Source of the DNA: an uncultured virus (IMG/VR IMGVR_UViG_3300050035_000427) | Lineage: Duplodnaviria > Heunggongvirae > Uroviricota > Caudoviricetes | Direction: 5' to 3' (one strand) | Length of the DNA stretch: 20,000 nucleotides | IMG/VR virus record: IMGVR_UViG_3300050035_000427 | Shown: piece after piece, positions 1-17,870 of the stretch | Layout of the letters: each line of letters begins with the position of its first letter | Numbering within the stretch: position 1 is the first letter of the stretch | The notes under the pieces: model-generated | Databases searched by the model: none | The model's input: only the letters and a program-made list of their open reading frames with translations | What the model was told of the DNA's origin: nothing | Made by a program: the position numbers and the translations under genes

Positions 1-2
1 CG

Positions 3-1946
3 TCAATCTGTGCAAGAGTGAATGCAACAAAGTACATCAAGCAGACGACTGCTGTGAACATTGATCCCTGGAATTCAACATGTGGATCTACTGGAGGAAC
101 CTTTGGGATTCTCTGGTGCACTGGAGGCACGGATTATCAGCCCTCGTCTTCGTCGAGCAGCTATGTCTCGGCGGAAACTCTGGACAACACGGCTGTACAG
201 AATGCACTGAACTCTTGTCCCAGTGGTCAGGGAGTTGAATTGATCCCGGGCACAAGTGGTCAAAATGCTTTCGTCCTCGCGCCGTTCAGCATCGTAAACA
301 GTTCTGGAGCAGGAGTAAATCTCATTGTTGATGCAGGCATTCACGTGTTTGCCTCGCGCAATCTGTCTGACTACGGTGGCACCAACTGTGGACTGACAAC
401 TAACTCTACCAGTGATTGCAATCACTGGATCACTTCGCCCAGCACGACTGGCGCTGGCATCTATGGCTATGGAGTGCTTGATGGACGTGGATGGTCTGCT
501 TACATCGGGCAAACAACTCATGGATTCTATGCCAATCGCATTCTAGCCTACTGTGATGCTCATGGTGGAGCCATAGCTGGATCTCCCGGTTGCCCGAACA
601 CAACTTCTGGTGTGAACTCTTACGGGCCAAACGGGATCAATCTGATTGGCACAACCAATTTCACCATGTACAAGATCTCATTGTGGAACAGTGGAAACTT
701 CCTTATTAACTGGCAGAGTGGCAATGGGTTCACTGCCTGGGATGTGAAGCTGATCGCTCCGTTCGAAGTTTCGAATACGGATGGTTGGGATCCTCTCAAC
801 TCGACTAATGGTACGTTCACTCACAGCTTCATAAGTGTTGGTGATAACCATATGGCTGTGAAAGCAACATCAGGAGCTTCCTCCAACATCACGTTCTCAA
901 ATTCGCAAACCGGCGCTGGAATTGGAGTGGCAATTGGCACGAATGCTACAAACGGGATATCCAACGTCCTGGTAGATACTTTGGTGCAAAATGGAAATCT
1001 CTACAGCACTCAGAGCGCAGGAATAATGATTGGATCGAGCACCGCAGACGGTGGCCTTGTCAACAAAGTGACCTATCGGAACGTCTGCATGGTGAACGAG
1101 TACAACTCGATTCGTTTATACACCAACTATGGCGGTAACACTGGGTCAAATATTCCTGTCTATCAAAACATCCTGCTGCGTAACATCACTGTGTTGCCCA
1201 GTACTGCTCCCTACACCACAGGCAACTCAGGCAGATATACCTTCCAGGGATTAAGTGGACATCCAATAATTGCCCAAATCGACAACTTGCACATCCTGGG
1301 TACAAATCAAGGTGTCGCTGCTCAGTCAGGAGTAACGACTGATCAGTACTCGGCCATATACCTTGGTCCTGGGACGGTCGATTCCACGCTTCTAACCCAG
1401 TTTTCTGGTGGTACAGGAGTCACTACCTCTGGATCCACCACTTCCACTACGCAGTACGCTTGCACCAGCACAACCTGGCAGCCACTGATTGGCGAATTGA
1501 ACATCAAGACTTCGGTTTCCAACAACAATCAAACAGCGACTGTGATAGCCTTGGCTCCGTTCACCCTACAGGCCGTCCTACAGCCATCGACAGCAATCAG
1601 CACAAAGGAATCTCCGGCTCTCACAGCCTCAGTGAATTTCTATGACAATTGTTTCACAACTCCGACAAGTTGTTCACCAATCGGAACTGTTGCGCTTTCA
1701 GGAGATGGGACATATGCTGCCTATACTCTATCCAGCGGAACTTCACTGGGAACTCACAACTACATAGCTTATTATCCAGGAGATTCGAATTATCCAGCAT
1801 ACACATTTGGATCAGTCACGGTCACTGCAGTAACAGCGCCACCTGCTGCAAAGTCGTATGCACCCATTGTGATTGGTGAATTGGTGACCCCGGCAGGTTT
1901 CGAACCTGCGACCCTCTGCTTAGAAGGCAGATGCTCTATCCACTGA
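3..1946 (+). CDS. GH28 polygalacturonase-like beta-helix protein with C-terminal Ig-like domain (probably 5'-partial; possible virion depolymerase)
   Basis: Motifs NTDGWDP and GDNHMAVK match GH28 NTD/GDD. Beta-helix repeats are present. The C-terminal YIAYYPGDSNYP is typical of bacterial Ig-like group 3 domains. The frame is open to the window start. The last ~21 codons run antisense through tRNA-Arg. Confidence 0.75.
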   Translation, partial: SICARVNATKYIKQTTAVNIDPWNSTCGSTGGTFGILWCTGGTDYQPSSSSSSYVSAETLDNTAVQNALNSCPSGQGVELIPGTSGQNAFVLAPFSIVNSSGAGVNLIVDAGIHVFASRNLSDYGGTNCGLTTNSTSDCNHWITSPSTTGAGIYGYGVLDGRGWSAYIGQTTHGFYANRILAYCDAHGGAIAGSPGCPNTTSGVNSYGPNGINLIGTTNFTMYKISLWNSGNFLINWQSGNGFTAWDVKLIAPFEVSNTDGWDPLNSTNGTFTHSFISVGDNHMAVKATSGASSNITFSNSQTGAGIGVAIGTNATNGISNVLVDTLVQNGNLYSTQSAGIMIGSSTADGGLVNKVTYRNVCMVNEYNSIRLYTNYGGNTGSNIPVYQNILLRNITVLPSTAPYTTGNSGRYTFQGLSGHPIIAQIDNLHILGTNQGVAAQSGVTTDQYSAIYLGPGTVDSTLLTQFSGGTGVTTSGSTTSTTQYACTSTTWQPLIGELNIKTSVSNNNQTATVIALAPFTLQAVLQPSTAISTKESPALTASVNFYDNCFTTPTSCSPIGTVALSGDGTYAAYTLSSGTSLGTHNYIAYYPGDSNYPAYTFGSVTVTAVTAPPAAKSYAPIVIGELVTPAGFEPATLCLEGRCSIH

Positions 1947-1957
1947 GCTACGAGGCC
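1882..1957 (-). tRNA. tRNA-Arg(UCU)
   Basis: Reverse complement GGCCTCGTAGCTCAGTGGATAGAGCATCTGCC-TTCTAA-GCAGAGGGTCGCAGGTTCGAAACCTGCCGGGGTCACCA folds as a full cloverleaf with encoded CCA. Confidence 0.96.
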
Positions 1958-2187
1958 ACGACTTCTTCAGGTAATGGATCGCGGCAATACTGCCTTAGAT
2001 TCCGATCACAAGACCCGATGCTCTTGTAATTTATCCTACCCTCTCGCAGTGTCATGTGATTGCAATCACTGGGAGTGTCCTCATTCTCGAGACATTCATC
2101 TTCCCAGTAGCACACTGGACAGATTTCATACACATGACGCACGTCTTCGAGAGTGTGATTACCGCAACAAGGACAAGGAAATAGCAT
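1948..2187 (-). CDS. CPCC-family cysteine-rich protein
   Basis: CPCCG...EICPVCYWED motif. The stop codon lies inside the 5' end of tRNA-Arg(UCU). Confidence 0.85.
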   Translation of the reverse strand: MLFPCPCCGNHTLEDVRHVYEICPVCYWEDECLENEDTPSDCNHMTLREGRINYKSIGSCDRNLRQYCRDPLPEEVVAS

Positions 2188-2200
2188 GTCTCACCAAACT

Positions 2201-2277
2201 TGGTGACCGTGGAGGGGATTGAACCCCCGACCTGCGGTTTAGGAAACCACCGCTCTATCCAACTGAGCTACACGGTC
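2201..2277 (-). tRNA. tRNA-Arg(CCU)
   Basis: Cloverleaf with GACCGTG/CACGGTC acceptor, anticodon loop TT-CCT-AA and CCA end. Confidence 0.95.
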
Positions 2278-2438
2278 ATGCCTAACTTCTCTTTCAGGTA
2301 CTCTCTCATCTGATACACTTCGTTCGGCTTGCACCAGATGTACACCGGACCCGTTGGTGCGGGTATAAGGCTCTCAGCAAATGCTCTTTGGAGCATCTCC
2401 AACGTGATATCTCCCGCATTGGATTGTTTCAGTTCCAT
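2268..2438 (-). CDS. Hypothetical protein (56 aa, MELKQSNAG...)
   Basis: ORF between two tRNAs. The ATG at 2438 was chosen because the longer ORF would read through tRNA-Lys. The stop lies inside tRNA-Arg(CCU). Confidence 0.55.
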   Translation of the reverse strand: MELKQSNAGDITLEMLQRAFAESLIPAPTGPVYIWCKPNEVYQMREYLKEKLGMTV

Positions 2439-2446
2439 GGATGTTA

Positions 2447-2522
2447 TGGTGCGCCCGAAGGGACTCGAACCCCCAACCAACTGGTTAAAAGCCAGATGCT
2501 CTGACCATTGAGCTACGAGCGC
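2447..2522 (-). tRNA. tRNA-Lys(UUU)
   Basis: Cloverleaf with anticodon loop CT-TTT-AA, GGTTCGAGTCC T-arm and CCA. Confidence 0.96.
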
Positions 2523-2590
2523 ACAGTGCGTTTGCCAGGCTCGTCTGAAGGTTTTCGCATTGTGACACTCCTCTCTCAAAACTGATCTTA

Positions 2591-2634
2591 GAACCGGATC
2601 AGGGATTCCGGCAGGTTGTTAGCTGATCCGGTTC
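2591..2634. repeat. 12-bp perfect inverted repeat (GAACCGGATCAG / CTGATCCGGTTC) with 20-nt loop
   Basis: Arms read directly at 2591-2602 and 2623-2634. Confidence 0.7.
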
Positions 2635-2772
2635 CTCGATTGATCAGGAGCGTTGAACTAGGTTTACCGAACTAGACGATCCGGATTACATGAGCACGGA
2701 GTGCTCGATGCGCGAATAGCCTCATCCTCTGTCTGAACCTCTACCTGAACAACTCTCCTGAACCTCTAAACT

Positions 2773-2821
2773 TGGGGCCGAATCGCCTCGTGCACAGACG
2801 ATATCTACCTCCGACTCGGCC
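2773..2821 (-). ncRNA. 49-nt mini-tRNA-like RNA with His identity elements
   Basis: GGCCGAGUCG/CGAUUCGGCC stem directly followed by CCA (G-1:C73-like). Inner hairpin UCGU-CUGUGC-ACGA. Same CCA-AGTTT trailer as neighbouring tRNAs. Confidence 0.5.
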
Positions 2822-2834
2822 AACATCGGTCATC

Positions 2835-3365
2835 TCAATAGAACAGGTACTTCTTCCACTTTTCCATGCCGGCACCCATAGAACGAATCAGGTTCCGGTT
2901 GGTGTGAATGGTCAATGGACGAGGGTAGCGAATCAGTTTCATGTCCTTGATATCGCTCAGATCCCTGTCGCCCTTCTTCTGGTTGCAAGCCTGACAAGCC
3001 GTGACCAGGTTCTCCCAGCAGTTCCTTCCACCCTTGGACTTCGGTACAACGTGGTCCCAGGTGAGATTCTTTGCTGAGAACTGAACACCGCAGTACTGGC
3101 AGGTGTAACCGTCGCGAAGGTAGATGTTCCGTCTGCTCAACTCCTGCTGACGGTGTGGCACCTTCCGGTACTTCACCAGCCTGACTACGCAAGGAAGAAA
3201 GAATCCTGGACGAACCAAGAGGTCATACTCTTCCTCAGACTTGGCAACTCCCTTGATTACCATGCACAGTGCCCGCTGAGCACTCGCATAGCGCAGCGGC
3301 TCGTAACTGGCATTCAGTACGAGAACCGGAGTCGACTTGATGAGAGTGTTGGTTGCGGACAACAT
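2835..3365 (-). CDS. HNH endonuclease (VLVLNASYEPL family)
   Basis: RDGYTCQYCG...DHVVPKSKGG...WENLVTACQACNQKKG motifs, with upstream SD AAGGA. Confidence 0.92.
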   Translation of the reverse strand: MLSATNTLIKSTPVLVLNASYEPLRYASAQRALCMVIKGVAKSEEEYDLLVRPGFFLPCVVRLVKYRKVPHRQQELSRRNIYLRDGYTCQYCGVQFSAKNLTWDHVVPKSKGGRNCWENLVTACQACNQKKGDRDLSDIKDMKLIRYPRPLTIHTNRNLIRSMGAGMEKWKKYLFY

Positions 3366-3387
3366 GGTGGTTTCCTTTCTTGAAAAA

Positions 3388-3421
3388 TGGTGGAGGATCG
3401 GTCCGGAATGACTTCACCCCC
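3388..3421 (-). ncRNA. 34-nt Ala-type (G3:U70) minihelix resembling fused tmRNA termini
   Basis: GGGGGUGAAGUCAUUCCGGACCGAUCCUCCACCA: G1-C72, G2-C71, G3-U70, G4-C69, G5-C68, then A73-CCA and a U-rich trailer. Confidence 0.45.
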
Positions 3422-3425
3422 AAGT

Positions 3426-4052
3426 TCAGGCTGCCGACTTGATAGAGTCTAAAATTCTCACACATCTGGTCAAGTACCTGCTTCCTGAAGAATCACTCAA
3501 TCCGACTTTTCTTAATGCTTGAGAAACAGTTTCAGACGTTCTTAGAGCTTCAAGCAACTGTTCATCTGAAATTCTTCCTTCGCTACTTCTACCCACTTTG
3601 TTTCCGCAATAGGTGGGCAACTGACTGTCACAATTGGGACAAATACCTCTGAAGTTACTGCGAGAATTGTTGGATCGCACACCATCTATGTGATCTAGCC
3701 GAAGAGATATGGGTTTTCCATTCCACTCGTCAATCCCACAGATTAAGCACTTTCCTCCTTGTTCCCTTACAACCCTTTCCTTCTTACTGCCATACCCTAG
3801 ATCTTCAAAGGGAGTAGCAGCTGATCTGGCGAGTATCTTGGCAGCCCGTTTCTTTATCGCCTCTGCTGACTGAGAATTTTCTCGAAAGGTGACGTACTTT
3901 TCATGATGTTCGGAGTACGCCTTCCTGCTCTTCTCACTCCTGCTCCGATTTACCTCCGGAGTCCAGGTCCTTGAATGACTACATTTGGAAGAGCAGAAAT
4001 TTCCTTCTCCGTATGAGCCATCATGTTCCTTACCACACTTCTTGCAGATCAT
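3426..4052 (-). CDS. Free-standing HNH homing endonuclease with N-terminal Cys cluster
   Basis: CKKC...FCSSKC N-terminus and CLICG...LDHIDG...NNSRSNFRGICPNC. SD AAGGAG. Lies directly 3' of tRNA-Met. Confidence 0.88.
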   Translation of the reverse strand: MICKKCGKEHDGSYGEGNFCSSKCSHSRTWTPEVNRSRSEKSRKAYSEHHEKYVTFRENSQSAEAIKKRAAKILARSAATPFEDLGYGSKKERVVREQGGKCLICGIDEWNGKPISLRLDHIDGVRSNNSRSNFRGICPNCDSQLPTYCGNKVGRSSEGRISDEQLLEALRTSETVSQALRKVGLSDSSGSRYLTRCVRILDSIKSAA

Positions 4053-4093
4053 TCTAAGGGACTCCTTATACTAAAGAATCCCCTAGTTCAAAT

Positions 4094-4171
4094 TGGTCGC
4101 AGTGAAGGGATTTGAACCCCCGACATCTTTCTTATGAGGAAAGCGTTCTCACCAGGCTGAACTACACTGCG
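4094..4171 (-). tRNA. tRNA-Met(CAU), elongator-type
   Basis: Cloverleaf CGCAGTG/CACTGCG with loop CT-CAT-AA. C1:G72 is paired and there is no GGG/CCC anticodon stem, so it is not an initiator. Confidence 0.9.
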
Positions 4172-4206
4172 ATTTATTCTTCGAACTACACTGCGATTTA
4201 TTCTTC
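4159..4206. repeat. 24-bp perfect tandem duplication (GAACTACACTGCGATTTATTCTTC x2) spanning the tRNA-Met 5' end
   Basis: Copies at 4159-4182 and 4183-4206. Confidence 0.9.
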
Positions 4207-4207
4207 G

Positions 4208-4538
4208 TCATTTCCGTTCATCAAGTTTCTCCTGGTGGCATTCCAAACACTTCTGCTTGAGAGGCCACTCGTTGTTACACGTCGTGACCTCTGTTGAGTT
4301 GCATGAAGGACAGTGAATCGAGGCCTTATCCAGCCATGCGAGCAGTTCCTGAAACTTCCTGTCGTCCTGCATATTCGGCCTTGATGTACTCAACTTCCTT
4401 GCTGTTGCAACTCTCGAGCTTCCGCCCGACCTTCCAATCCTTCTTGCGCTGCTCGATGACAAACTGAGTCCAAGTGTAAGAAGACGAGTAACTCGACTTC
4501 TCCTCGTAGCAGCGGAACCAAAGACCGTTGAAGTTCAA
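4208..4538 (-). pseudogene. Hypothetical CxxC/CxxC protein, possibly split by a frameshift near 4372 (or two small genes)
   Basis: ORF 4326-4538 reads plausibly to ...YIKAE. It appears to continue in another frame as MQDDRKFQELL...CPSC...CLEC. Confidence 0.35.
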
Positions 4539-4541
4539 ATA

Positions 4542-4817
4542 CTATCCGTCATACCACGAACGAGGGACCTCCCCACCTGGGAGACTTACCTGCAGTTCTT
4601 GACAGATGAACCTTGCAACATCTTCCGGATGGACTTCTCCGTCGCTCGTCTTCTTCCAGCGACCCCGGTCGATGTTGTCTTGTGACAAACCCATCAACTC
4701 ACTCAAATCCTTGTGATGCATCCGACCATCCGGAAATCTCACGAACAAGTCGGCCTTGCCAATCTTGAAGAGGAACGTCACTCCTCGAACTACGATCCTA
4801 CGCATGCGGGACTTCAT
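4542..4817 (-). CDS. Hypothetical protein (91 aa)
   Basis: ORF with SD AAAGG, co-oriented with the operon. Confidence 0.65.
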   Translation of the reverse strand: MKSRMRRIVVRGVTFLFKIGKADLFVRFPDGRMHHKDLSELMGLSQDNIDRGRWKKTSDGEVHPEDVARFICQELQVSLPGGEVPRSWYDG

Positions 4818-4971
4818 GAGGACCTTTCAGTGTCTTTTCCATCCTGGAGAAGCACCCTTCGAGTTGAATCAACGCCACGACACCAACTACAGCCAGACTG
4901 ACAAACATCCCCACTAAACATCCGAACAGAAAGGCAAGATGCACCAGAGCGGAAATCTCATCAGGGTTCAT
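4798..4971 (-). CDS. Small membrane protein (57 aa, MNPDEISALVHLAFLFGCLVGMFVSLAVVGVVALIQ...)
   Basis: Translated by hand (not in the ORF track). One hydrophobic segment; overlaps the next start. Confidence 0.55.
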   Translation of the reverse strand: MNPDEISALVHLAFLFGCLVGMFVSLAVVGVVALIQLEGCFSRMEKTLKGPHEVPHA

Positions 4972-5121
4972 GCCATTCTGATACTGCGTTTCGCTTCTCC
5001 AGCGAACTTTTACCTGCTGCGAGAGAGAGACGGACGGTTGTCGATACGTTTCAACCCACGCTCAAAAGAGCGACATTTGATCGAGGCCAGGTGCCGGTTG
5101 ACAATCCACCACGTGCCTCTT

Positions 5122-5180
5122 CCCAGGATAGACGCGCCTCTCCGATCAGGACTGTTCCGACCACCGGAGACTACCCTAGA
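5122..5180 (-). ncRNA. Two-stem hairpin within the RNA operon
   Basis: CUAGGGUAG/CUAUCCUGG and UCUCCGGU/AUCGGAGA stems. The G-U pairs work on the minus strand. Confidence 0.35.
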
Positions 5181-5188
5181 CTAAACTT

Positions 5189-5596
5189 TCACCACTCGAA
5201 GTCCTTTGCAAGATGAACATTCTTCACCTGCATATTCTTCGTCGGAGTAAATCTAAGTGTCACAGTTCCGCCTCCTTGAAATTGTTGGATCGGTAACCAG
5301 TAGCACTTTTCTGTAGCGGGCAAGTAAGCAACTACCACATCAATCTCTTCAGACGTGTACTTCTTCTTGTATCCGCTATTTCGGCATTCAGCCGATAGAC
5401 CCACTTCAACAGAATCCTTCGTCAAGCTACAGCTGCAATACTTCACTTGAACCCTGAGAAGTTCCTTTCCGTTGTCGACCACCAAGTCGTACCTGGCGTC
5501 TACAGAAGGAACGCTCACAATCCATCCCAACTCGGTGGCTCGGAGCATGACTTTCAGCTTTCCGATCTCACCCTTTTGATGAGTGCTTGCTAGCAT
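5189..5596 (-). CDS. PD-(D/E)XK endonuclease, group I intron-associated (I-Ssp6803I-like) family, free-standing
   Basis: HQKGEIG...SVP...RYDLVVD...RVQVK...Y...EID motif pattern, adjacent to tRNA-Lys. Confidence 0.88.
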   Translation of the reverse strand: MLASTHQKGEIGKLKVMLRATELGWIVSVPSVDARYDLVVDNGKELLRVQVKYCSCSLTKDSVEVGLSAECRNSGYKKKYTSEEIDVVVAYLPATEKCYWLPIQQFQGGGTVTLRFTPTKNMQVKNVHLAKDFEW

Positions 5597-5618
5597 ATCT
5601 CATCAATACTCAAAACTT

Positions 5619-5694
5619 TGGTGCGAGCGGAGGGGATCGAACCCCCGACGTCCCGGTTAAGAGCCGGTTACTCTACCAACTGAGTTACGCTCGC
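5619..5694 (-). tRNA. tRNA-Lys(CUU)
   Basis: Cloverleaf GCGAGCG/CGCTCGC with loop CT-CTT-AA and CCA. Confidence 0.96.
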
Positions 5695-5707
5695 ACATCT
5701 ACAAAAA

Positions 5708-5788
5708 GGCTCTCCGGGGAGGTGGGCCATCCCTCCATACACTCCTCGCGAAAGAGAGTGTGTCTTGCCACTATGAAACGACCGGAAA
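5708..5788 (-). ncRNA. Degenerate tRNA-Glu(UUC)-like RNA
   Basis: Acceptor UUUCCGG/CCGGAGA + G-CC(U). D-arm with AGUGG. Extended anticodon arm ACACUC/GAGUGU around CUUUCGC. T-stem GGAGG/CCUCC with a non-canonical 9-nt loop. Confidence 0.55.
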
Positions 5789-5798
5789 CTTACAAATT

Positions 5799-5976
5799 CA
5801 ACGCCGGTGCTCTATCCAGGCTGAGCTACCACCAAGCGAATGGACCGTTCCGCCGACCTTGATTCCCCTCTAGAAAAGGAATCCTGGGACTCTTAGGGCA
5901 TGGTCACTTGCTCTGTCTAAACGGGTGGGTTGGATTCGGACCAACGACCACCGGCTGCTTGTTGGGCGGAATGATC
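5799..5976 (-). ncRNA. Circularly permuted tRNA-like RNA (T-arm, acceptor stem closed by a 90-nt insert, D-arm), YrlA/Y-RNA-like architecture
   Basis: The tRNA 3' half (GCCGGUGGUCGUUGGUCCGAAUCCAACCCACC, 5955-5924) precedes the 5' half (GGUGGUAGCUCAGCCUGGAUAGAGCACCGGC, 5833-5803). GCCGGU/ACCGGC and CCACC/GGUGG pair. Confidence 0.75.
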
Positions 5977-5989
5977 ACACCCGAATCTT

Positions 5990-6064
5990 TGGCTCCTGAG
6001 GAGGGATTCGAACCCACAACCATTCGGTTAACAGCCGAACGCTCTGCCGTTGAGCTACCCAGGA
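5990..6064 (-). tRNA. tRNA-Asn(GUU)
   Basis: Cloverleaf with loop CT-GTT-AA and G73-CCA. Confidence 0.96.
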
Positions 6065-6071
6065 ACACTTG

Positions 6072-6266
6072 TTATACTGCAACTTCCTCAATCTCGATCT
6101 GAACCTTCTTGCTGCTCATCACTTCGTCAGCAACACCGAAGGCAACCTCATAATCCTCAAATCTGGTTGCCTCGTAGCGATATCCAAACCTCAAAGTGCG
6201 GGTGATCGCAGCATCGTCTGAGATGACATAGTTCGATGTATTCGGTACTCTCAAGATGTGCTGCAT
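6072..6266 (-). CDS. Hypothetical protein (64 aa)
   Basis: ORF with SD-like GGTAAGG, between tRNAs. Confidence 0.6.
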   Translation of the reverse strand: MQHILRVPNTSNYVISDDAAITRTLRFGYRYEATRFEDYEVAFGVADEVMSSKKVQIEIEEVAV

Positions 6267-6312
6267 GACCTTACCCTCTACTCCGATTTATGAGATCGGG
6301 TACTGCTGAATT

Positions 6313-6388
6313 TGGGGAGTCTAGAGGGATTCGAACCCTCGACTACTGGTGCCACAGACCAGCGTTCTACCGCTGAACTACAGACTCC
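6313..6388 (-). tRNA. tRNA-His(GUG)
   Basis: Cloverleaf with encoded G-1:C73, loop CT-GTG-GC and CCA. Confidence 0.96.
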
Positions 6389-6399
6389 ATGAAATTGTT

Positions 6400-6473
6400 T
6401 GGCTGCCTCTGTAGGATTCGAACCTACATATCCTGGTCCAGAGCCAAGTGTCCTGCCATTGAACGAAAAGGCA
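6400..6473 (-). tRNA. tRNA-Gln(CUG)
   Basis: Cloverleaf with U1-A72, loop CT-CTG-GA and G73-CCA. Confidence 0.95.
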
Positions 6474-6494
6474 ACATGTGAAACCGAACTTGTT

Positions 6495-6573
6495 GGGCAG
6501 GAACGGTGGGAATCCATTGACCTCCTGGTTGGAGCCAGAAGGCGTGGAAACCCATTCTTCCGCTGAACTGCCC
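6495..6573 (-). ncRNA. ~80-nt rod-like hairpin RNA with apical CUCCAA loop
   Basis: Successive stems GGGCAG/CUGCCC, GCGG/CCGU, UGGG/CCCA, UCCA/UGGA and CCUUCUGG/CCAGGAGG. Confidence 0.5.
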
Positions 6574-6575
6574 GA

Positions 6576-6743
6576 CCGGGCAATGACTTCTAAGCTACAT
6601 TCGCCGAAGCGAATGCTGGTCAACCTTCTCACCAGATCCCCGCCGTTGAAGGCGGTGCTTTGTTCGGACTCGCCACGGAGGTTCCAGCCTCATGGGTCTG
6701 TCCTGGTCTAGTCGCACTGGCCCCTGGAAGGTCCATTGCCCGG
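6576..6743 (-). ncRNA. 168-nt structured RNA, apparently a circularly permuted raiA-motif-like RNA
   Basis: Closing stem CCGGGCAAU/AUUGCCCGG and a cUUCGg hairpin. Blocks CUUCCAG.GGC.AGUG...AGACCAGG, AGUC...CAAAG and GCUUAGAAGU resemble recalled raiA conserved blocks, in permuted order. Confidence 0.6.
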
Positions 6744-6788
6744 AAACTTTATTGCACGAACGAAAAGTAGACTAAGAGGCGGTGCAAA

Positions 6789-6935
6789 CTACTTGATGAA
6801 CAATCCGTCAATCACGCTCTTGGCTTTGTCTTCCGTTCTGACATAGTTCCGGACCACGTAGGTCTCGGCTATGATGCGAAAGCCGCCATCTCGTAAAGGA
6901 TGAATCGTATACCCGCGATATATTGTGTCTTCCAT
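6789..6935 (-). CDS. Hypothetical protein (48 aa, MEDTIYRGYTIHP...)
   Basis: Small phage-type ORF. The start was trimmed to avoid reading through tRNA-Trp. Confidence 0.55.
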   Translation of the reverse strand: MEDTIYRGYTIHPLRDGGFRIIAETYVVRNYVRTEDKAKSVIDGLFIK

Positions 6936-6976
6936 ACGAATCTCTACTGGAAAACCCAGCATATCGGTTAATCTTT

Positions 6977-7051
6977 TGGCGGGAAATAGAGGAATCGAAC
7001 CCCTGAGTTCTGATTTGGAGGCAGACAGTTTACCAACTAGCTTAATTTCCC
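6977..7051 (-). tRNA. tRNA-Trp(CCA)
   Basis: Cloverleaf GGGAAAT/ATTTCCC with loop CT-CCA-AA and G73-CCA. There is one anticodon-stem mismatch. Confidence 0.92.
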
Positions 7052-7091
7052 GTTGAATCCAGACTTTCGGAACCATTACTGGAGGTTCCAA

Positions 7092-7622
7092 TTGAAATCT
7101 TGCGAAAATTGCACTACTCTTCACGATGGTACTTATGGTTCTGGTCGTTTCTGTTCAATTGGCTGTGCTAGAGGCTTTGCCACCAAAGCATCTAGGTTAA
7201 AAATCAACCAAGAAGTGAGTGCTAAACTGAAGGGTAAACCTGTTCGTAATCGTAGTCCTCATAGTAAAGAAGTGAAGGAAAAGATACGCAGAAGCATCAA
7301 TCAAGGATTTCAAATCAAATTCCAAAAGTGGATAGATGACTGGCTTTCCGGAAAGATACATCCCACAAGAGCCAACTATAGAGTAGTGCACAAAGCATTA
7401 GCCATTTTAAGAGGAGATAAGTGTGAACAATGCGGTTGGAAAGAGGTTCATCCGAAAACTGGACTTATCCCAGTGCAACTTCATCATATTGACGGTGATG
7501 GAGATAACAATTCACCAGATAATGTGAAACTGTTGTGTCCAAGCTGTCATTCACTCACTCTCAATTTCATGGCTTTGAACTACTACAACAAATTGTCAAA
7601 GATCACGCCGTTGTTCGCCTGA
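7092..7622 (+). CDS. Free-standing HNH homing endonuclease, paralog of 3426-4052, antisense to the tRNA operon
   Basis: GGAGG + TTG start at 7092. Motifs CENC...HDGTYGSGRFCSIGC and CEQCG...LHHIDGD..NN.PDN..LLCPSCH. Confidence 0.88.
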   Translation: MKSCENCTTLHDGTYGSGRFCSIGCARGFATKASRLKINQEVSAKLKGKPVRNRSPHSKEVKEKIRRSINQGFQIKFQKWIDDWLSGKIHPTRANYRVVHKALAILRGDKCEQCGWKEVHPKTGLIPVQLHHIDGDGDNNSPDNVKLLCPSCHSLTLNFMALNYYNKLSKITPLFA

Positions 7623-7639
7623 GCGAATCAATTCAAACT

Positions 7640-7716
7640 TGGTCGGGCCACTAGGGTTCGAACCTAGGACCTTGGGATTATGAGTCCCTTGCTCTAACCA
7701 ACTGAGCTATGGCCCG
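7640..7716 (-). tRNA. tRNA-CAU, probably Ile2 (lysidine) type
   Basis: Cloverleaf with loop CT-CAT-AA. The GGGCC acceptor, TGGTTAGAGC D-arm and GACTCATAATC anticodon context resemble Ile2. Met cannot be excluded. Confidence 0.88.
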
Positions 7717-7744
7717 AACTCGAACTCGGCTCGTGCAAAAACTT

Positions 7745-7821
7745 TGGTGATCCCGGAGGGAGTTGAACCCCCAACCTTATGGTTCGTAGCCATACGCGCT
7801 ATCCAGTTGCGCCACGGGACC
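7745..7821 (-). tRNA. tRNA-Arg(ACG)
   Basis: Cloverleaf with loop CT-ACG-AA, an A20-containing D-loop and CCA. Confidence 0.96.
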
Positions 7822-7840
7822 ACTCTCAAAATCCATCCCT

Positions 7841-7876
7841 AAAAACCAAATCCCGCCAGCTTGTGGGCTTGGCGGG
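7841..7876 (-). terminator. Intrinsic terminator (attenuator) upstream of the first tRNA
   Basis: CCCGCCAAGC-CCACAA-GCUGGCGGG followed by AUUUGGUUUUU. Confidence 0.75.
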
Positions 7877-7933
7877 TGGAAACTCTGAAAATACCAGGTA
7901 GGATTACGCACTACCTCCAGAATCCAGACCGCC
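7871..7933 (-). promoter_or_regulatory. Antiterminator helix overlapping the leader-peptide 3' end and the terminator 5' arm
   Basis: GGCGGUCUGGAUUCUGGAGGUA (7933-7912) can pair with UAUUUUCAGAGUUUCCACCCGCC (7893-7871), sequestering CCGCC of the terminator. Confidence 0.7.
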
Positions 7934-7999
7934 GATGGCATGCTGATTTCGCTGCCACTGCTTATGCTGTCTCATCGAATTGGTCTGTATCTGTTTCAC
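7904..7999 (-). CDS. Leader peptide, 31 aa (MKQIQTNSMRQHKQWQRNQHAIGGLDSGGSA)
   Basis: SD AAGGGAG, GTG start, and TAA inside the antiterminator loop. Its codons match the downstream tRNAs. Confidence 0.75.
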   Translation of the reverse strand: MKQIQTNSMRQHKQWQRNQHAIGGLDSGGSA

Positions 8000-8020
8000 A
8001 GTACTCCCTTGACAAATTTC

Positions 8021-8054
8021 ATAATACTACGGTTTCCTCTGATCGGGGAAACTA
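8021..8054 (-). promoter_or_regulatory. Putative promoter of the leader/tRNA operon (-10 TATTAT; upstream TAGTTTCCCCGATC)
   Basis: The -10 lies ~11 nt upstream of the leader SD. The upstream motif is shared with 9601-9614. Confidence 0.45.
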
Positions 8055-8061
8055 TTTTTGC

Positions 8062-8185
8062 CAGTGATTACGGAATCCTTTGTAACAAAACACTCAACCA
8101 TGAAGGATTCGAACCTTCGCTATGAATGCACCCAATCATGACACTGTTCAGCACCAGGGGTCTACAAAGGATTCCGTAATCACTG
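8062..8185. repeat. 23-bp perfect inverted repeat enclosing 78 nt that contains an isolated tRNA T-arm
   Basis: CAGTGATTACGGAATCCTTTGTA (8062-8084) pairs with 8163-8185. Minus-strand GAAGG-TTCGAAT-CCTTC at 8102-8118. Confidence 0.9.
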
Positions 8186-8477
8186 TACATTACACTCTAC
8201 CGAACAACTTCTCAAAACGGTTAATGATGCCTTTAGACAGATTCAGGGAGGTACTCGCGTCTTTTATCTCCCAGCCCGGTGGCCACCAGACAATTAGAAG
8301 ATTGGCCTGACGCTTTCGCTCCCTGTCACTGCTCGAGTCTATCCTGTGTACTTTAGGAAGCAAGGCTCTGTTGGCTCCACCGCGCAATGGGTGATGAAGA
8401 CCTGCCCCTCACTCACTTGTCAACTCAATGGATTCCTCTACGGTGGTCTGTGGAGGAACGGTTAGGCGGTCACTGGC

Positions 8478-9551
8478 TCATCGGTCAGTTGGGCATCGGC
8501 CATCGTTCAGACGAAGAGTGAACTGAGCGATATGAACTGGCTCATTCTCTTTGATGGCCTTCTGCCAGTAGAACTGATACTGACTGGCGTAACCTGCCAG
8601 CTGGGCATCCTCCAGTGTGAACTTCACAAAGGGGATGAGATTTTTGCCTCCCTCGATGCCGAACAAACGGGGACCAAGAGCCTTCCTGATTCTGGCATAG
8701 GTGTAGCTGATGTAGATGCCAGGACTGGTGACGTTGCACCAGTTCTCAATGTCGAGGATGGTGTTCTTCCCGACTGCAGCTGAGTTGAACTGCCAGGCCA
8801 GGACGTTCCATGCCAACTGAGGAGAGACTACAGCGTTCTCGCTGGGCTTGATCACCTTGCTAACTTCTTCGAACAGTTCCTCAGCCGCCACAAGGTTCGC
8901 TTCTGCTCCCTCCTTCTCCCGGGAGCGCATCTTCTTGTAGTCCTTGCCCAGAACCAGACCCATCGGCTTGTGCTGATCTCCCAATCCCAGGCTCTTGAAA
9001 TGTTCGTGTTGCTCATACCCTGTCAGATATAAGTCCGGAGCACAGAATTCTACGAAGCTCAGATCGTGTGCTGCATAGGTTGGACGACCGTCAGAGCGGT
9101 ATATCACGACACCGTTGAACATCTTACAGCCTTCGTACTCTCCGGTGCCGGGAGTCAGTGTGTATCCTGTGGGCGGCTTCATGTCCCTATCAAATAAGAT
9201 GAATGGCTGATATCCGGAGATGTGACACCAGTTGTTGAATGCCGTGTACGCTCCCTCTTTCTCGCCAATGGTGACTCCCAGCATTGCGACTGGCTTGGCT
9301 TTGGTGATATTTGCCAGCGCGGCGGCGATTGCCAGGTTCTTGATGTGCCCGACATGAAGGTCTTTGTTGAGGTTAGGTGAGAATCCATCCAGAGTTATCT
9401 CGGATGGTTTGGCTTTCTCAGGCCATTCCCAGACGGTTGGCGTTACATGGTAGTTGTGGTAAATACCCACAGATTCATAACGAAATCCCTTGAGATCGAG
9501 TGGAGTGAGTGAAGTGACACCAACTCCCACTTGTTCAGGTATAGGATGCAT
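8478..9551 (-). CDS. argS: Arginyl-tRNA synthetase-like protein, compact and C-terminally truncated
   Basis: FSPNLNKDLHVGHIKN (HIGH), RSDGRPTYAAHDL, EQHEHF, KKMRSR (KMSKS-like), GIYISYTYARI and EPVHIAQF. SD GGAGAGG precedes the ATG at 9551. Confidence 0.85.
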   Translation of the reverse strand: MHPIPEQVGVGVTSLTPLDLKGFRYESVGIYHNYHVTPTVWEWPEKAKPSEITLDGFSPNLNKDLHVGHIKNLAIAAALANITKAKPVAMLGVTIGEKEGAYTAFNNWCHISGYQPFILFDRDMKPPTGYTLTPGTGEYEGCKMFNGVVIYRSDGRPTYAAHDLSFVEFCAPDLYLTGYEQHEHFKSLGLGDQHKPMGLVLGKDYKKMRSREKEGAEANLVAAEELFEEVSKVIKPSENAVVSPQLAWNVLAWQFNSAAVGKNTILDIENWCNVTSPGIYISYTYARIRKALGPRLFGIEGGKNLIPFVKFTLEDAQLAGYASQYQFYWQKAIKENEPVHIAQFTLRLNDGRCPTDR

Positions 9552-9572: not shown

Positions 9573-9635
9573 ATTCTACCAGAAGATGCCGGAATAAGGC
9601 TAGTTTACCCGATCTCTGGTACCGCAACGTAGAGT
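9573..9635. promoter_or_regulatory. Divergent promoter region: extended -10 TGGTAGAAT (minus strand, argS-like gene) and -10 TAGAGT (plus strand, probably leaderless macro-domain gene)
   Basis: Read by eye. The plus-strand -10 ends 5 nt before the ATG at 9641 and there is no SD. Confidence 0.45.
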
Positions 9636-9640
9636 GAAGT

Positions 9641-10348
9641 ATGAAAAAGACAATCCGTCTCACCGTGGGCAATGTCGAAACCTCTGGCGCGGAAGCTATT
9701 GTCAACGCAGCGAACAGGCATCTCAAGACTGGTCGCGGTGTATGCGGTGCGATCTATGCCGCCGCTGGCGTGACAGAGCTTGAAACCTATGTAGCAGATC
9801 ACTTTGAAGGCTGCCGCACCGGCAGAGCCGTGGTGACTCCAGCGTTTGGCATCAGCGGATCCAAGTATGTCCTCCACGCTGTTGGTCCGATCTACTCCGA
9901 ATACACTCCCCTAGAGGCGGCTCGCCTCCTCCGCAAAGCCTATCACTCGATCTTTGAACTCTGCTACTCGCTGGGAGTCAAGAATGTCGGCGTCGTGGCG
10001 ATCTCGTCTGGTATCTACGGGTATCCGGTTGAAGACGTTGCGAACATCGCGGCTGACGAGGCCATGCGCACCCCTTACAAGGGCGACATCACCTTCTACG
10101 TCTGGCAGGACAATCTGGCCGTCTTCGAGAAAGCCTTCGCTTCGATCCTCACTCCAGCAGTTCCTGTGATCGTCGATAAGTGCGCTGTATGCGATTTGCC
10201 GGCTGACCACATCGACCATATCGGCCTTCTTGGAATGGGAATTGACCATCCTTTCAAAAGTTCACTGCAGCCAGTTACACCAGTATCTGATCCTGTGGAC
10301 GCGAGCACGCGCAAGGTCTTCACGATGGATGACCCAGCAGTAGTCTGA
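9641..10348 (+). CDS. Macro-domain protein (ADP-ribose hydrolase, YmdB/MacroD-like) with C-terminal extension
   Basis: AIVNAAN..L..GRGVCGAIYAAAG, HAVGP and AISSGIYGYP motifs. Confidence 0.93.
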   Translation: MKKTIRLTVGNVETSGAEAIVNAANRHLKTGRGVCGAIYAAAGVTELETYVADHFEGCRTGRAVVTPAFGISGSKYVLHAVGPIYSEYTPLEAARLLRKAYHSIFELCYSLGVKNVGVVAISSGIYGYPVEDVANIAADEAMRTPYKGDITFYVWQDNLAVFEKAFASILTPAVPVIVDKCAVCDLPADHIDHIGLLGMGIDHPFKSSLQPVTPVSDPVDASTRKVFTMDDPAVV

Positions 10349-13810: not shown

Positions 13811-14035
13811 ATGTCGGAAGCACCTAAATACAAAGGTAAGGTCAAGTGGTTCAATAACGCCAAAGGATATGGATTCATTGGGCGTGAAGATGGGCCAGAT
13901 GTATTCGTTCACTACTCGGCAATCCAGTTGAACGGATACAAAACTCTCAAAGAAGGTGATGATGTCGAGTTCGGCATTGTCGAAGGACAGAAAGGTCCCC
14001 AGGCGGATTCAGTTATTCGTTTGCAGGATGTGTAA
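13811..14035 (+). CDS. cspA: Cold-shock domain protein
   Basis: [15 protein letters not shown] (RNP1) and DVFVHYSAI (RNP2). Confidence 0.96.
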
Positions 14036-15949: not shown

Positions 15950-16738
15950 ATGCACGTCGTCAAAAGAATGATCACCCCTAACGGGAAACTCGACAAGAGA
16001 ACTGTTTCGGCTATGATAGTGGTCGAGATTGCGATCTTTGCAGCAGTGTGGGTGACTTCACCCTTCGTGTTCCTTCCAAAGCCTCAGGATGTCCTCAGCG
16101 CCATGGGTGACCTATGGCAGCAGGGTTTGGCCCTGGAACTCATAACGAGCCTCACGCTCAACTTCCAGGCTCTCCTGGTGGCCTCGCTCCTCTCTCTGGT
16201 CATGGCTTATCTCGGCACCGTGCCCCTCTTCCGACCTGCCATTCAGATGATAGGCAAGCTGAGATTTCTGAGCATGGTCGGGTTGACATTCTTCTTCACC
16301 CTGATGACGAACTCAGGTCACCAACTCAAGTTGTCTCTCCTGGTATTCTCAGTCTCGGTCTTCTTCGTGACTGGCATGGTGGATGTGATCAATTCCGTTC
16401 CCAAGGAGAAGTACGATCTATGTCGAGTCCTTCACATGGGACCCTGGCGGACTCTCTATGAGGCGGTCATCCTCGGTCAGTTCGACAAAGCCTTCGATGT
16501 ACTCAGGCAGAACGCGGCCATCGGCTGGATGATGCTCTCCATGATTGAGGGCATGAGCCGTTCGGAGGGTGGAATTGGCGCGATGCTGATGACCCAAAAC
16601 AAGTATTTCCATCTATCCGAAATCATGGCCATTCAGATAATCATCCTGGTCCTTGGCTTGCTCCAAGACTTCGTTCTCGGCTGGCTGAAGAGTCTGGTAT
16701 GCCCATATGCCAATCTTGTACTGGAGAATAACAAATGA
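15950..16738 (+). CDS. ABC transporter permease (NitT/TauT family)
   Basis: LPKP..V motif, about 6 TM helices, EAA-like loop and W...E...SEGGIG motif. Confidence 0.9.
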   Translation: MHVVKRMITPNGKLDKRTVSAMIVVEIAIFAAVWVTSPFVFLPKPQDVLSAMGDLWQQGLALELITSLTLNFQALLVASLLSLVMAYLGTVPLFRPAIQMIGKLRFLSMVGLTFFFTLMTNSGHQLKLSLLVFSVSVFFVTGMVDVINSVPKEKYDLCRVLHMGPWRTLYEAVILGQFDKAFDVLRQNAAIGWMMLSMIEGMSRSEGGIGAMLMTQNKYFHLSEIMAIQIIILVLGLLQDFVLGWLKSLVCPYANLVLENNK

Positions 16739-17013
16739 ACCCTCTCATGCAGCAGTTTCTTCACCTGGATTTTGGCTCTGGTGCATTTTGGATCATCATG
16801 ACCGCTGTTGGCGGCCTGGTCTCCATGGGACACACGCTCATCAACAAGAAGTATCCCGGGCACCGGCACACCTTTGACCCCAACAAGTGGGAGATGACCA
16901 ACGAGATTGAGTATGTCGACGATAGCATCGACAAGTTCTACATCAACACCTGCTTGGGCTGTGGAATGCTCATAGAGAAGACAATCGAGATTGAATCCAA
17001 GTCAGAGGAGTAG
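16735..17013 (+). CDS. Hypothetical membrane protein inserted between permease and ATPase
   Basis: ATGA overlap, one TM segment, HxH...CxxC. Confidence 0.65.
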   Translation: MNPLMQQFLHLDFGSGAFWIIMTAVGGLVSMGHTLINKKYPGHRHTFDPNKWEMTNEIEYVDDSIDKFYINTCLGCGMLIEKTIEIESKSEE

Positions 17014-17015
17014 GA

Positions 17016-17870
17016 ATGTTCGTTCAGTATGAGTACAAAGAGACACTCTTGAAATTGGATAATTTGTGTCTGAATTTTGGGCCGAAGCCAATTCTCAAGG
17101 GAGTATGTGCTGAGATCAAGGATATCTACATTCCTGGCAGAACGACAGGTCAAATTGTCGGATTCCTTGGCCCATCCGGAGTTGGTAAGACTCAGTTGCT
17201 TCGTCTTCTGGCTGGCCTGCATGACCCCACCAGCGGACAGGTTCTTCTTGCTAATGGAGCAGAGACTGGCAAATACGACGGAACCTTTCATCCCGTGTCT
17301 GCTGGAGAAGTCGGAGTTGTGGCTCAGAACTACCCTCTGTTCGAGCATCGTTCGGTATTTGGCAACCTGATGTTGCCGGCGCTCGCTCATGAACAGAATC
17401 GTGCAACAGCCAAGGATACGGTCCTCACTCACCTGGACAAGTTCGGGTTGCTTGACAAGAAAGATCTCTATCCCTGTCAGCTTTCTGGCGGTCAGCGCCA
17501 GCGGGTTGCCATTCTCCAAATGATCATCTGCAAAGAGAGATTCATTCTCATGGATGAACCTTTTTCTGGACTTGATCTGATTGCCATTGAAACCATCATG
17601 GAGACTATTCAGGAGGCAGCAAACTTGCGTGAGGACAACACTGTTATCATTGTCACTCACGACGTCACAGCGGCTGTCTCGATTGCCGACCACATCTGGC
17701 TGCTGGGTAGGGACCATGATGCTGAGGGCAAGGTAATTCCTGGTGCACGCATTGTCGAAACTTACGATCTGCTCGCTCGTGGTCTTTGTTACGAGCCGGG
17801 AATTATCACTGCCAATCACGGGTTCACAGACACAGTGCGTGAAATCAAAACCAGATTCAGAACTCTATAA
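17016..17870 (+). CDS. ABC transporter ATP-binding protein (NitT/TauT family)
   Basis: Walker A GPSGVGKT, signature LSGGQ, Walker B ILMDEPF and H-loop VTHD. Confidence 0.96.
   Translation: MFVQYEYKETLLKLDNLCLNFGPKPILKGVCAEIKDIYIPGRTTGQIVGFLGPSGVGKTQLLRLLAGLHDPTSGQVLLANGAETGKYDGTFHPVSAGEVGVVAQNYPLFEHRSVFGNLMLPALAHEQNRATAKDTVLTHLDKFGLLDKKDLYPCQLSGGQRQRVAILQMIICKERFILMDEPFSGLDLIAIETIMETIQEAANLREDNTVIIVTHDVTAAVSIADHIWLLGRDHDAEGKVIPGARIVETYDLLARGLCYEPGIITANHGFTDTVREIKTRFRTL

Follow-up and report, generated by a model that had tools for sequence, protein, structure and literature searches.

Leaders matched in codons to the tRNA genes they precede suggest transcription attenuation in a jumbo phage from peat

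Results

We analysed a stretch of 20,000 nucleotides (hereafter the window) from an uncultured Caudoviricetes virus (IMG/VR record IMGVR_UViG_3300050035_000427), which carries on its minus strand a block of 11 tRNA genes (1882-7821) headed by a short leader open reading frame (ORF) and a transcription terminator. Nuclease genes and putative structured RNAs lie among the tRNAs, a gene related to arginyl-tRNA synthetase (ArgRS) lies upstream, and a macro-domain gene diverges from the latter. The source record is 187 kb long, about 60% complete and annotated as encoding a major head protein, and the sequencing runs that contain the window come mostly from peat and permafrost samples. The virus is a jumbo phage from peat. 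Its host is probably an acidobacterium, because nearly all of the best 80 bacterial relatives of its HNH nuclease of the VLVLNASYEPL family are from Acidobacteriota, and because Tunturi 5, which among cultured phages is nearest in capsid (identity 76% over the matched pieces) and in HNH, infects Tunturiibacter.

The block starts with tRNA-Arg(ACG) (7745-7821), followed by a tRNA with a CAT anticodon, either Met or Ile2 (7640-7716), and by tRNA-Trp(CCA) (6977-7051), tRNA-Gln(CTG) (6400-6473), tRNA-His(GTG) (6313-6387), tRNA-Asn(GTT) (5990-6064), tRNA-Lys(CTT) (5619-5694), tRNA-Met(CAT) (4094-4171), tRNA-Lys(TTT) (2447-2522), tRNA-Arg(CCT) (2201-2277) and tRNA-Arg(TCT) (1882-1957), all on the minus strand. 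The initial annotation of the window, which proposed an inducible translation-rescue island, had the number and strand of these genes right. A 24-nucleotide exact tandem duplication (4159-4206) spans the 5' end of tRNA-Met. At the other end of the block, a GH28 gene on the plus strand overlaps tRNA-Arg(TCT) at 1882-1946 and has its stop codon within the tRNA. An 11-nucleotide motif (8416-8426, minus strand) is also found in tRNA-block spacers at G000 C1:181804 and L317:8896 (0.9 hits expected, 6 observed, two of them from the same phage).

An attenuator had also been predicted, and it is recognizable as a leader ORF and a terminator placed before the first tRNA. A promoter-like -10 motif (8020-8031, minus strand), which has 62 matches genome-wide and stands before all four leaders of this genome, precedes an ORF of 31 codons (7904-7999, minus strand) whose translation is predicted from a GTG start and a Shine-Dalgarno-like site; a near-identical 31-nucleotide stretch precedes the Val/Gly block. 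The intrinsic terminator (7841-7876, minus strand) lies 27 nucleotides past the leader stop and 31 nucleotides before the first tRNA, and consists of a hairpin (7876-7852, -15.1 kcal/mol) and an imperfect U-tract. Pairing of the leader end with the 5' arm of the terminator gives a predicted antiterminator (7871-7933, minus strand; nascent-RNA fold of -26.3 kcal/mol). A generic promoter and terminator scan worked at chance level and did not detect this attenuator.

The control codons of the leader are Lys, Gln, Asn, Met, Arg, His and Trp. Between codons 2 and 20, 16 of 19 are cognate to the block (expected fraction 0.25, P = 9e-8), and over the whole leader 16 of 30 (P = 7.5e-4). The same 19 codons include 0 or 1 that match the amino-acid sets of the other blocks. 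All five Gln codons are CAG, and the sole Gln tRNA of the block is Gln(CTG). The leader is conserved, with one change, in strain L209.

The genome as a whole encodes 31 tRNAs for 17 amino acids (ARAGORN), which fall into four blocks according to amino acid: Tyr/Leu/Ser, Arg/Met/Trp/Gln/His/Asn/Lys (the block of the window), Val/Gly/Asp/Ala/Glu and Pro/Phe. By reading, all blocks open with the same layout, in which a promoter-like motif and a short ORF are followed by a hairpin with a U-run and then by the first tRNA. Cognate codons make up 16/19 of the leader of the Tyr/Leu/Ser block, 14/19 of the Val/Gly/Asp/Ala/Glu leader and 5/18 of the Pro/Phe leader, and the true pairing of leaders and blocks ranks first among the 24 possible ones. 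In relatives with complete genomes, tRNA sets reach 19 to 20 amino acids. The Arg/His/Asn/Lys/Gln/Trp block is conserved and is found again in L301, L311 and L218. Seven relatives (L289, L293, L294, L299, L305, L307 and L313) have tRNAs called Pyl(CTA) by ARAGORN, which may be Trp or suppressor types.

For a broader comparison, leaders were searched by position only, in the tRNA regions of 10 related virus records, of which the capsid protein had led to 8 and a T-loop pattern to 2, and in tRNA-bearing ArgRS and HNH loci. In the 38 leader-block pairs retained, the excess of cognate codons is 0.287, versus 0.004 +/- 0.027 when the pairings are shuffled (none of 20,000 shuffles reaches the observed value), and it is -0.05 and -0.01 in the other two reading frames. 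Poor ORFs chosen by the script were kept in this count (L296, L218, the third block of L011 and the late Arg block of L317), and the mixed arrays of L305, L013 and L040 are uninformative for codon match. The leader stop lies 19 to 29 nucleotides before the hairpin in 35 of the 38 pairs.

The match goes below the level of the amino acid. A TTA codon is present in seven of nine leaders with Leu(TAA) in the block, versus none of six without it (P = 0.007); for the Cys codon the comparison is 11/13 versus 7/25 leaders (P = 0.002), and for Gln the CAG:CAA ratio is 10:1 versus 3:4 (P = 0.047). Leader composition also follows blocks that are merged or split (L317, L300, L250 and L273): the L317 leader, with Pro, Phe and Met added, is cognate at 18 of 19 codons, and that of L300 is a Ser run with one TTA, over a block of four Ser tRNAs and Leu(TAA). 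Leaders are found as well on two arrays in Acidobacteriota assemblies (L357, L384), and in Tunturi 5 each of the three blocks is preceded by a matched leader, with 16/25, 21/25 and 18/25 cognate codons. Two of these were found by the script and the third, annotated as gp308 (49 codons), by reading.

Nascent-RNA folds were computed for two positions of the ribosome. In the window, the terminator arm is sequestered at about 0.5-0.6 with the ribosome in the control codons and at about 0.1 with the ribosome at the stop, and both states are predicted in 25 of the 38 leaders. When terminator arms were confronted with upstream regions of all leaders, their own upstream region was the best partner in 12 of 38 cases (1 expected) and among the top three in 21. 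The window ranks 7 of 38 in this cross-pairing test, which is thus stronger for the family than for the window. The ORF, the terminator, the codon match, its recurrence and the predicted folds are established by this analysis. We consider it probable that ribosome-mediated transcription attenuation governs the block as a tRNA operon, with the leader sensing slow decoding.

Several points weigh against this reading. The codon window 2-20 was picked after the leaders of this genome had been seen, and the pairs share ancestry, which makes the P values overstate their independence. The 38 pairs come from 59 candidates; some of the 21 that were dropped (13 for a weak hairpin, 5 for want of an ATG ORF of 45 codons or less, 3 as duplicates) look matched on inspection by eye. 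Of 33 tRNA runs, only 19 begin with a leader that the script detected; it detected none in the complete relative G008, nor any terminator for the Pro/Phe block of this genome. Long pieces of the block occur in three metatranscriptomes with 0-2 differences, as contigs that carry no strand, level or ends and for which a DNA origin is not excluded; RNA depth was not used for gene ranking, and ArgRS bins without cover are uninformative. Finally, leaders stand out weakly from control hairpins in the sequestration test (32/38 versus 18/24), the duplex test gives 12/38 versus 3/24, and at equilibrium the full-length RNA of the window is predicted to retain the terminator even when the ribosome is stalled. 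Any switching in the window must therefore be kinetic. The weak discrimination and the equilibrium fold would also suit a fixed leaky terminator or a processing signal, next to a leader devoid of any switching role. However, such a hairpin leaves unexplained the tracking of blocks by codons, the frame specificity and the fixed spacing, and we hold this explanation to be very improbable.

Four nuclease genes lie within the block, three of the HNH type and one PD-(D/E)XK. The HNH whose start reads VLVLNASYEPL, as had been noted initially, is found at 2835-3365 (minus strand; PF14279, E = 1e-17). The second HNH (3426-4052, minus strand; PHROG 14736, E = 2e-23) and the third (7053-7622) appear as exchangeable cassettes, and the PD-(D/E)XK gene lies at 5189-5596 (minus strand; PF11645, E = 4e-28). 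The picture of a single HNH with everything on one strand thus holds for the tRNAs, but not for the nucleases, the 7053-7622 HNH being on the plus strand, opposite to the tRNAs. An RNA contig of X16 has 252 other letters in place of 3424-4228, the span that holds the 3426-4052 HNH; an RNA contig of X17 lacks 7036-7595, at the 7053-7622 cassette, and strain L209 has there, after the CAT tRNA, a different nuclease-like ORF, GIY-YIG-like by eye. Such swapped or absent cassettes fit mobile homing nucleases, which PMC8421152 proposes for tRNA arrays.

The 11 best viral relatives of the VLVLNASYEPL-family HNH are all in tRNA arrays. As a general marker of arrays this HNH was rejected, at least five tRNAs being present in only 18/80 viral and 2/80 bacterial loci, and so was a fixed partnership between the HNH and an RNA, as in relatives a tRNA comes after the HNH.

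Sixteen stretches (13 plus 3, some of them nested) were folded and compared with shuffled sequences; their boundaries were set by eye, which inflates the z-scores. At least six structured RNAs had been announced, without coordinates. Five candidates stand as predictions, A, C, G2 and D by fold stability and B by motif, whereas E, F, G1, a mini-helix and H as a whole fold no better than shuffles (the sub-hairpins F1, F2 and H2 reach z = -1.7 to -2.2). Rfam, run on the window and three other loci, reported only tRNAs above cut-off, and, apart from the same phage, 36 related records searched with the locus by BLAST yielded matches of tRNA size only.

All five lie on the minus strand. RNA A (8059-8185, z = -7.0) has a T-arm flanked by a perfect inverted repeat of 23 bp. 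It is upstream of the attenuated unit, behind its own promoter-like motif at 8201, and among 228 loci nhmmer found a homologue in strain L209 only. RNA C (6490-6578, z = -5.3) may be a rod or a degenerate tRNA-Trp-like element; one RNA contig ends in adapter at 6494, its predicted 3' end, a weak hint from a single contig. RNA D (6575-6745, z = -2.6) is predicted to be multibranched with a 10-bp closing stem, belongs to no known family and is spanned by RNA-library contigs from three runs; a scan with its motif gave one match, at chance level. Single-sequence models of C and D gave no convincing homologue in 55 other loci. RNA G2 (2586-2765, z = -3.7, with a sub-hairpin at -3.5) is a putative structured module. 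Among the 40 of 127 strain changes listed, minus-strand pairing is kept at 5/6 changed paired sites in G2, 1/1 in D and 1/2 in H. The modules 2767-2835 and 2586-2765 (G2) are in reversed order in RNA contigs from two runs, G2 having moved as one piece in a related strain.

RNA B (5793-5965) resembles a circularly permuted tRNA body, with the T arm first and the D arm last, and was retained for this motif only (z = -0.65). Its T and D arms lie 117 nucleotides apart, and it has neither an anticodon loop nor a CCA. A T-loop scan for similar elements returned 37 matches, all ordinary tRNAs or unrelated on reading. In a separate scan, an orphan-arm filter let true tRNAs through, and its list was judged by eye only. 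In two other blocks (G000 C1:55981-56133 and 154080-154216), a permuted tRNA body is surrounded by a bulged stem, which in the window is split (7736-7727 and 6763-6752, minus strand) around 983 nucleotides that hold the CAT tRNA, an HNH and tRNA-Trp. A viral scan gave about 11 similar elements among 80 loci, with five weak YrlA scores (33-41 bits versus a cut-off of 69). The order T-arm, acceptor, D-arm is common to RNA B and the tRNA-like head of the YrlA Y RNAs (RF02553; PMC4201824). RNA B differs in that the GNCGAAN0-1G motif was not found by reading, Rfam gave no YrlA match up to E = 5, and the source record, 60% complete, has no Ro60 (TROVE) gene, which 3 of 27 related records have.

The ArgRS-like gene (8478-9551, minus strand) is indeed upstream of the block, but this record has only a truncated form of it, with a promoter-like motif of its own at 9580. 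Its product matches the full-length protein P0001 over 348 of 394 residues and diverges at 8508, where the final 46 residues are missing, leaving the anticodon-binding domain incomplete. Strain L209 has 901 extra bases at this point (8508/8509), carrying the C-terminus and further genes. An intron was rejected on this comparison, which indicates a deletion; a true strain deletion is likely, the identical truncated product being present on five contigs, which may be one sample set. The motifs HVGH (HIGH-like) and KKMRS (KMSKS-like) are conserved across 24 aligned homologues, and full-length P0001 does not reach the ArgRS family cut-off (70 versus 262, TIGR00456). These proteins appear to form a short family (about 390 residues, 190 matches) without the usual N-terminal part, and may be ligases. 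A search of the viral contig collection for ArgRS gave no locus. In L301, a short HisRS-like ORF was noticed by eye (3295-3950), within the His-containing block of G013, a position that recalls that of ArgRS genes next to blocks with Arg tRNAs.

The divergent macro-domain gene, as initially described, is found at 9641-10348 (plus strand; PF01661, E = 7e-29), and nothing was found that ties it to the tRNA block. Further along the plus strand of the window are genes for a cold-shock protein (13811-14035) and for an ABC transporter permease and ATPase (15950-17870). Two TnpB/Cas12f-like genes are encoded elsewhere in the genome (G000 C1:9902-11044 and 24773-25378).

Discussion

If the block is an attenuated operon as we propose, transcription would start near 8015 and a ribosome would then translate the leader. 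As long as Lys, Gln, Asn, Met, Arg, His and Trp are decoded fast, the ribosome would reach the stop and cover the antiterminator strand, and the terminator would halt RNA polymerase ahead of the first tRNA. Should any cognate tRNA be short, the ribosome would lag in the control codons, the antiterminator would form and the matching tRNAs would be made. With one sensor per block, the limiting tRNA group could be topped up whatever the cause, be it a host nuclease, host RNA decay or heavy demand. Translation of the leader, its switching, its trigger and any benefit are what we infer here. The initial idea of inducible, replacement tRNAs gains indirect support, since the leader uses the codons that its tRNAs read and the design recurs in relatives.

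What the leader would sense deserves discussion. Classic leaders sense uncharged tRNA, and a stalled ribosome cannot distinguish a missing tRNA from an uncharged one. The attenuator may thus be real and yet respond to amino-acid starvation, or to a general slowing of ribosomes by cold or antibiotics, rather than to the loss of particular tRNAs; the Anabaena tRNA array answers general translation stress (PMC8421152). However, a general sensor does not need a codon match down to single anticodons, and extra tRNA would presumably be no cure for a lack of amino acids. We find this alternative rather unlikely.

The initial annotation went further, and saw in the whole locus one co-regulated counter-defence island, in which the tRNAs replace the targets of anticodon nucleases, the odd RNAs are decoys, and the ArgRS and macro-domain proteins are partners. 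Some observations go in this direction: the sensor would fire on tRNA cleavage, RNA B mimics the tRNA elbow, an RNA ligase gene is encoded elsewhere in the genome, and the ArgRS gene is in or beside an Arg-containing block also in L218 and L254. But some tRNA is present near ArgRS at only 22 of 79 loci, many of them on short contigs, and the separate copies of one promoter-like motif before ArgRS (9580), RNA A (8201) and the leader (8031), the nuclease cassettes swapped or absent between strains and the truncated ArgRS all speak against a single unit. The structured RNAs are not conserved, and RNA B lacks the anticodon loop, which is the part cut by anticodon nucleases. The tRNAs do overlap the targets of such nucleases, but not above chance: they are a slice of a set for 17 amino acids, not enriched for targets, and matched leaders stand on all four blocks. 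Colicin E5 targets include Tyr and Asp tRNAs, and these sit in blocks other than that of the window. A choice of tRNAs against PrrC, colicins and VapC is not borne out by a conserved block that complements others, together covering up to 20 amino acids. That phage tRNAs counter host tRNases is an established idea (PMC10264068); as an account of the whole locus, the island is nonetheless improbable. For the nucleases and the odd RNAs, the best reading is that the array carries them as passengers, although the structured RNAs may act as tRNA decoys.

A broader view of the attenuated blocks can be proposed tentatively, and we would give it slightly less than an even chance. Large phages may keep a tRNA thermostat, in which a near-complete tRNA set is held in blocks and each leader samples the codons of its block down to the anticodon. 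The ribosome would detect a cut in any host tRNA, matching replacements would follow, and leaders would be rewritten whenever blocks are reshuffled. Immunity that destroys tRNAs would thereby meet a general and self-targeting counter, and those structured RNAs that lie within the attenuated unit could be co-released as tRNA mimics.

Multivalent leader-peptide attenuators are well known from amino-acid operons (thrL, the ilvGMEDA leader, hisL, trpL), and another is the pheST leader. The window resembles them in its short leader with control codons and in a predicted antiterminator that overlaps an intrinsic terminator before the first gene. It differs in having tRNA genes as its output, in reading up to seven or more amino acids with one leader, in a match that reaches isoacceptors, and in being carried by a phage and repeated per block. 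His leaders are described ahead of hisS paralogues in PMC2965389, where the term 'tRNA gene' does not occur in the parts covered. No description of leader attenuators for tRNA genes was found in open-licence PMC and bioRxiv texts, at the level of titles and abstract starts. On these comparisons, codon-matched leader attenuation ahead of phage tRNA genes appears to be a known mechanism with a new target.

The Anabaena trn operon, as described in PMC8421152, shares with the window a same-strand tRNA array with a linked HNH; it is mobile, induced by translation stress and controlled by promoter repeats and a repressor, whereas the window array belongs to a set split into amino-acid blocks. A general repeat listing showed no repeats of this type over the -10 box (8020-8060), no targeted search having been made. 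The main text of that article, as far as covered, uses none of the terms 'attenuat', 'leader' or 'uORF'. Phages can make good the loss of host tRNAs to defence nucleases with tRNAs of their own (PMC10264068; PMC11555353); the parts of these articles covered describe no sensing element (a term look-up of PMC10264068 gave no 'attenuat'), and in the window we see no enrichment for nuclease targets. Tunturi 5 (PP885688), for which 43 tRNAs were counted, is the closest parallel, with the same HNH in a tRNA block and three matched leaders, and it differs in block composition; in the parts of PMC11924767 covered, 'attenuat' and 'leader' are not used.

The reason why phages carry tRNAs has been debated for decades, between codon compensation and counter-defence. 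A sensor that names its tRNAs codon by codon would imply genes made on demand, with a testable trigger, and the same design is also available in culture, in Tunturi 5 and its host Tunturiibacter. The leader could serve as a compact reporter of tRNA shortage. Compared with the known systems, leader attenuation would here be extended from enzymes to tRNA genes.

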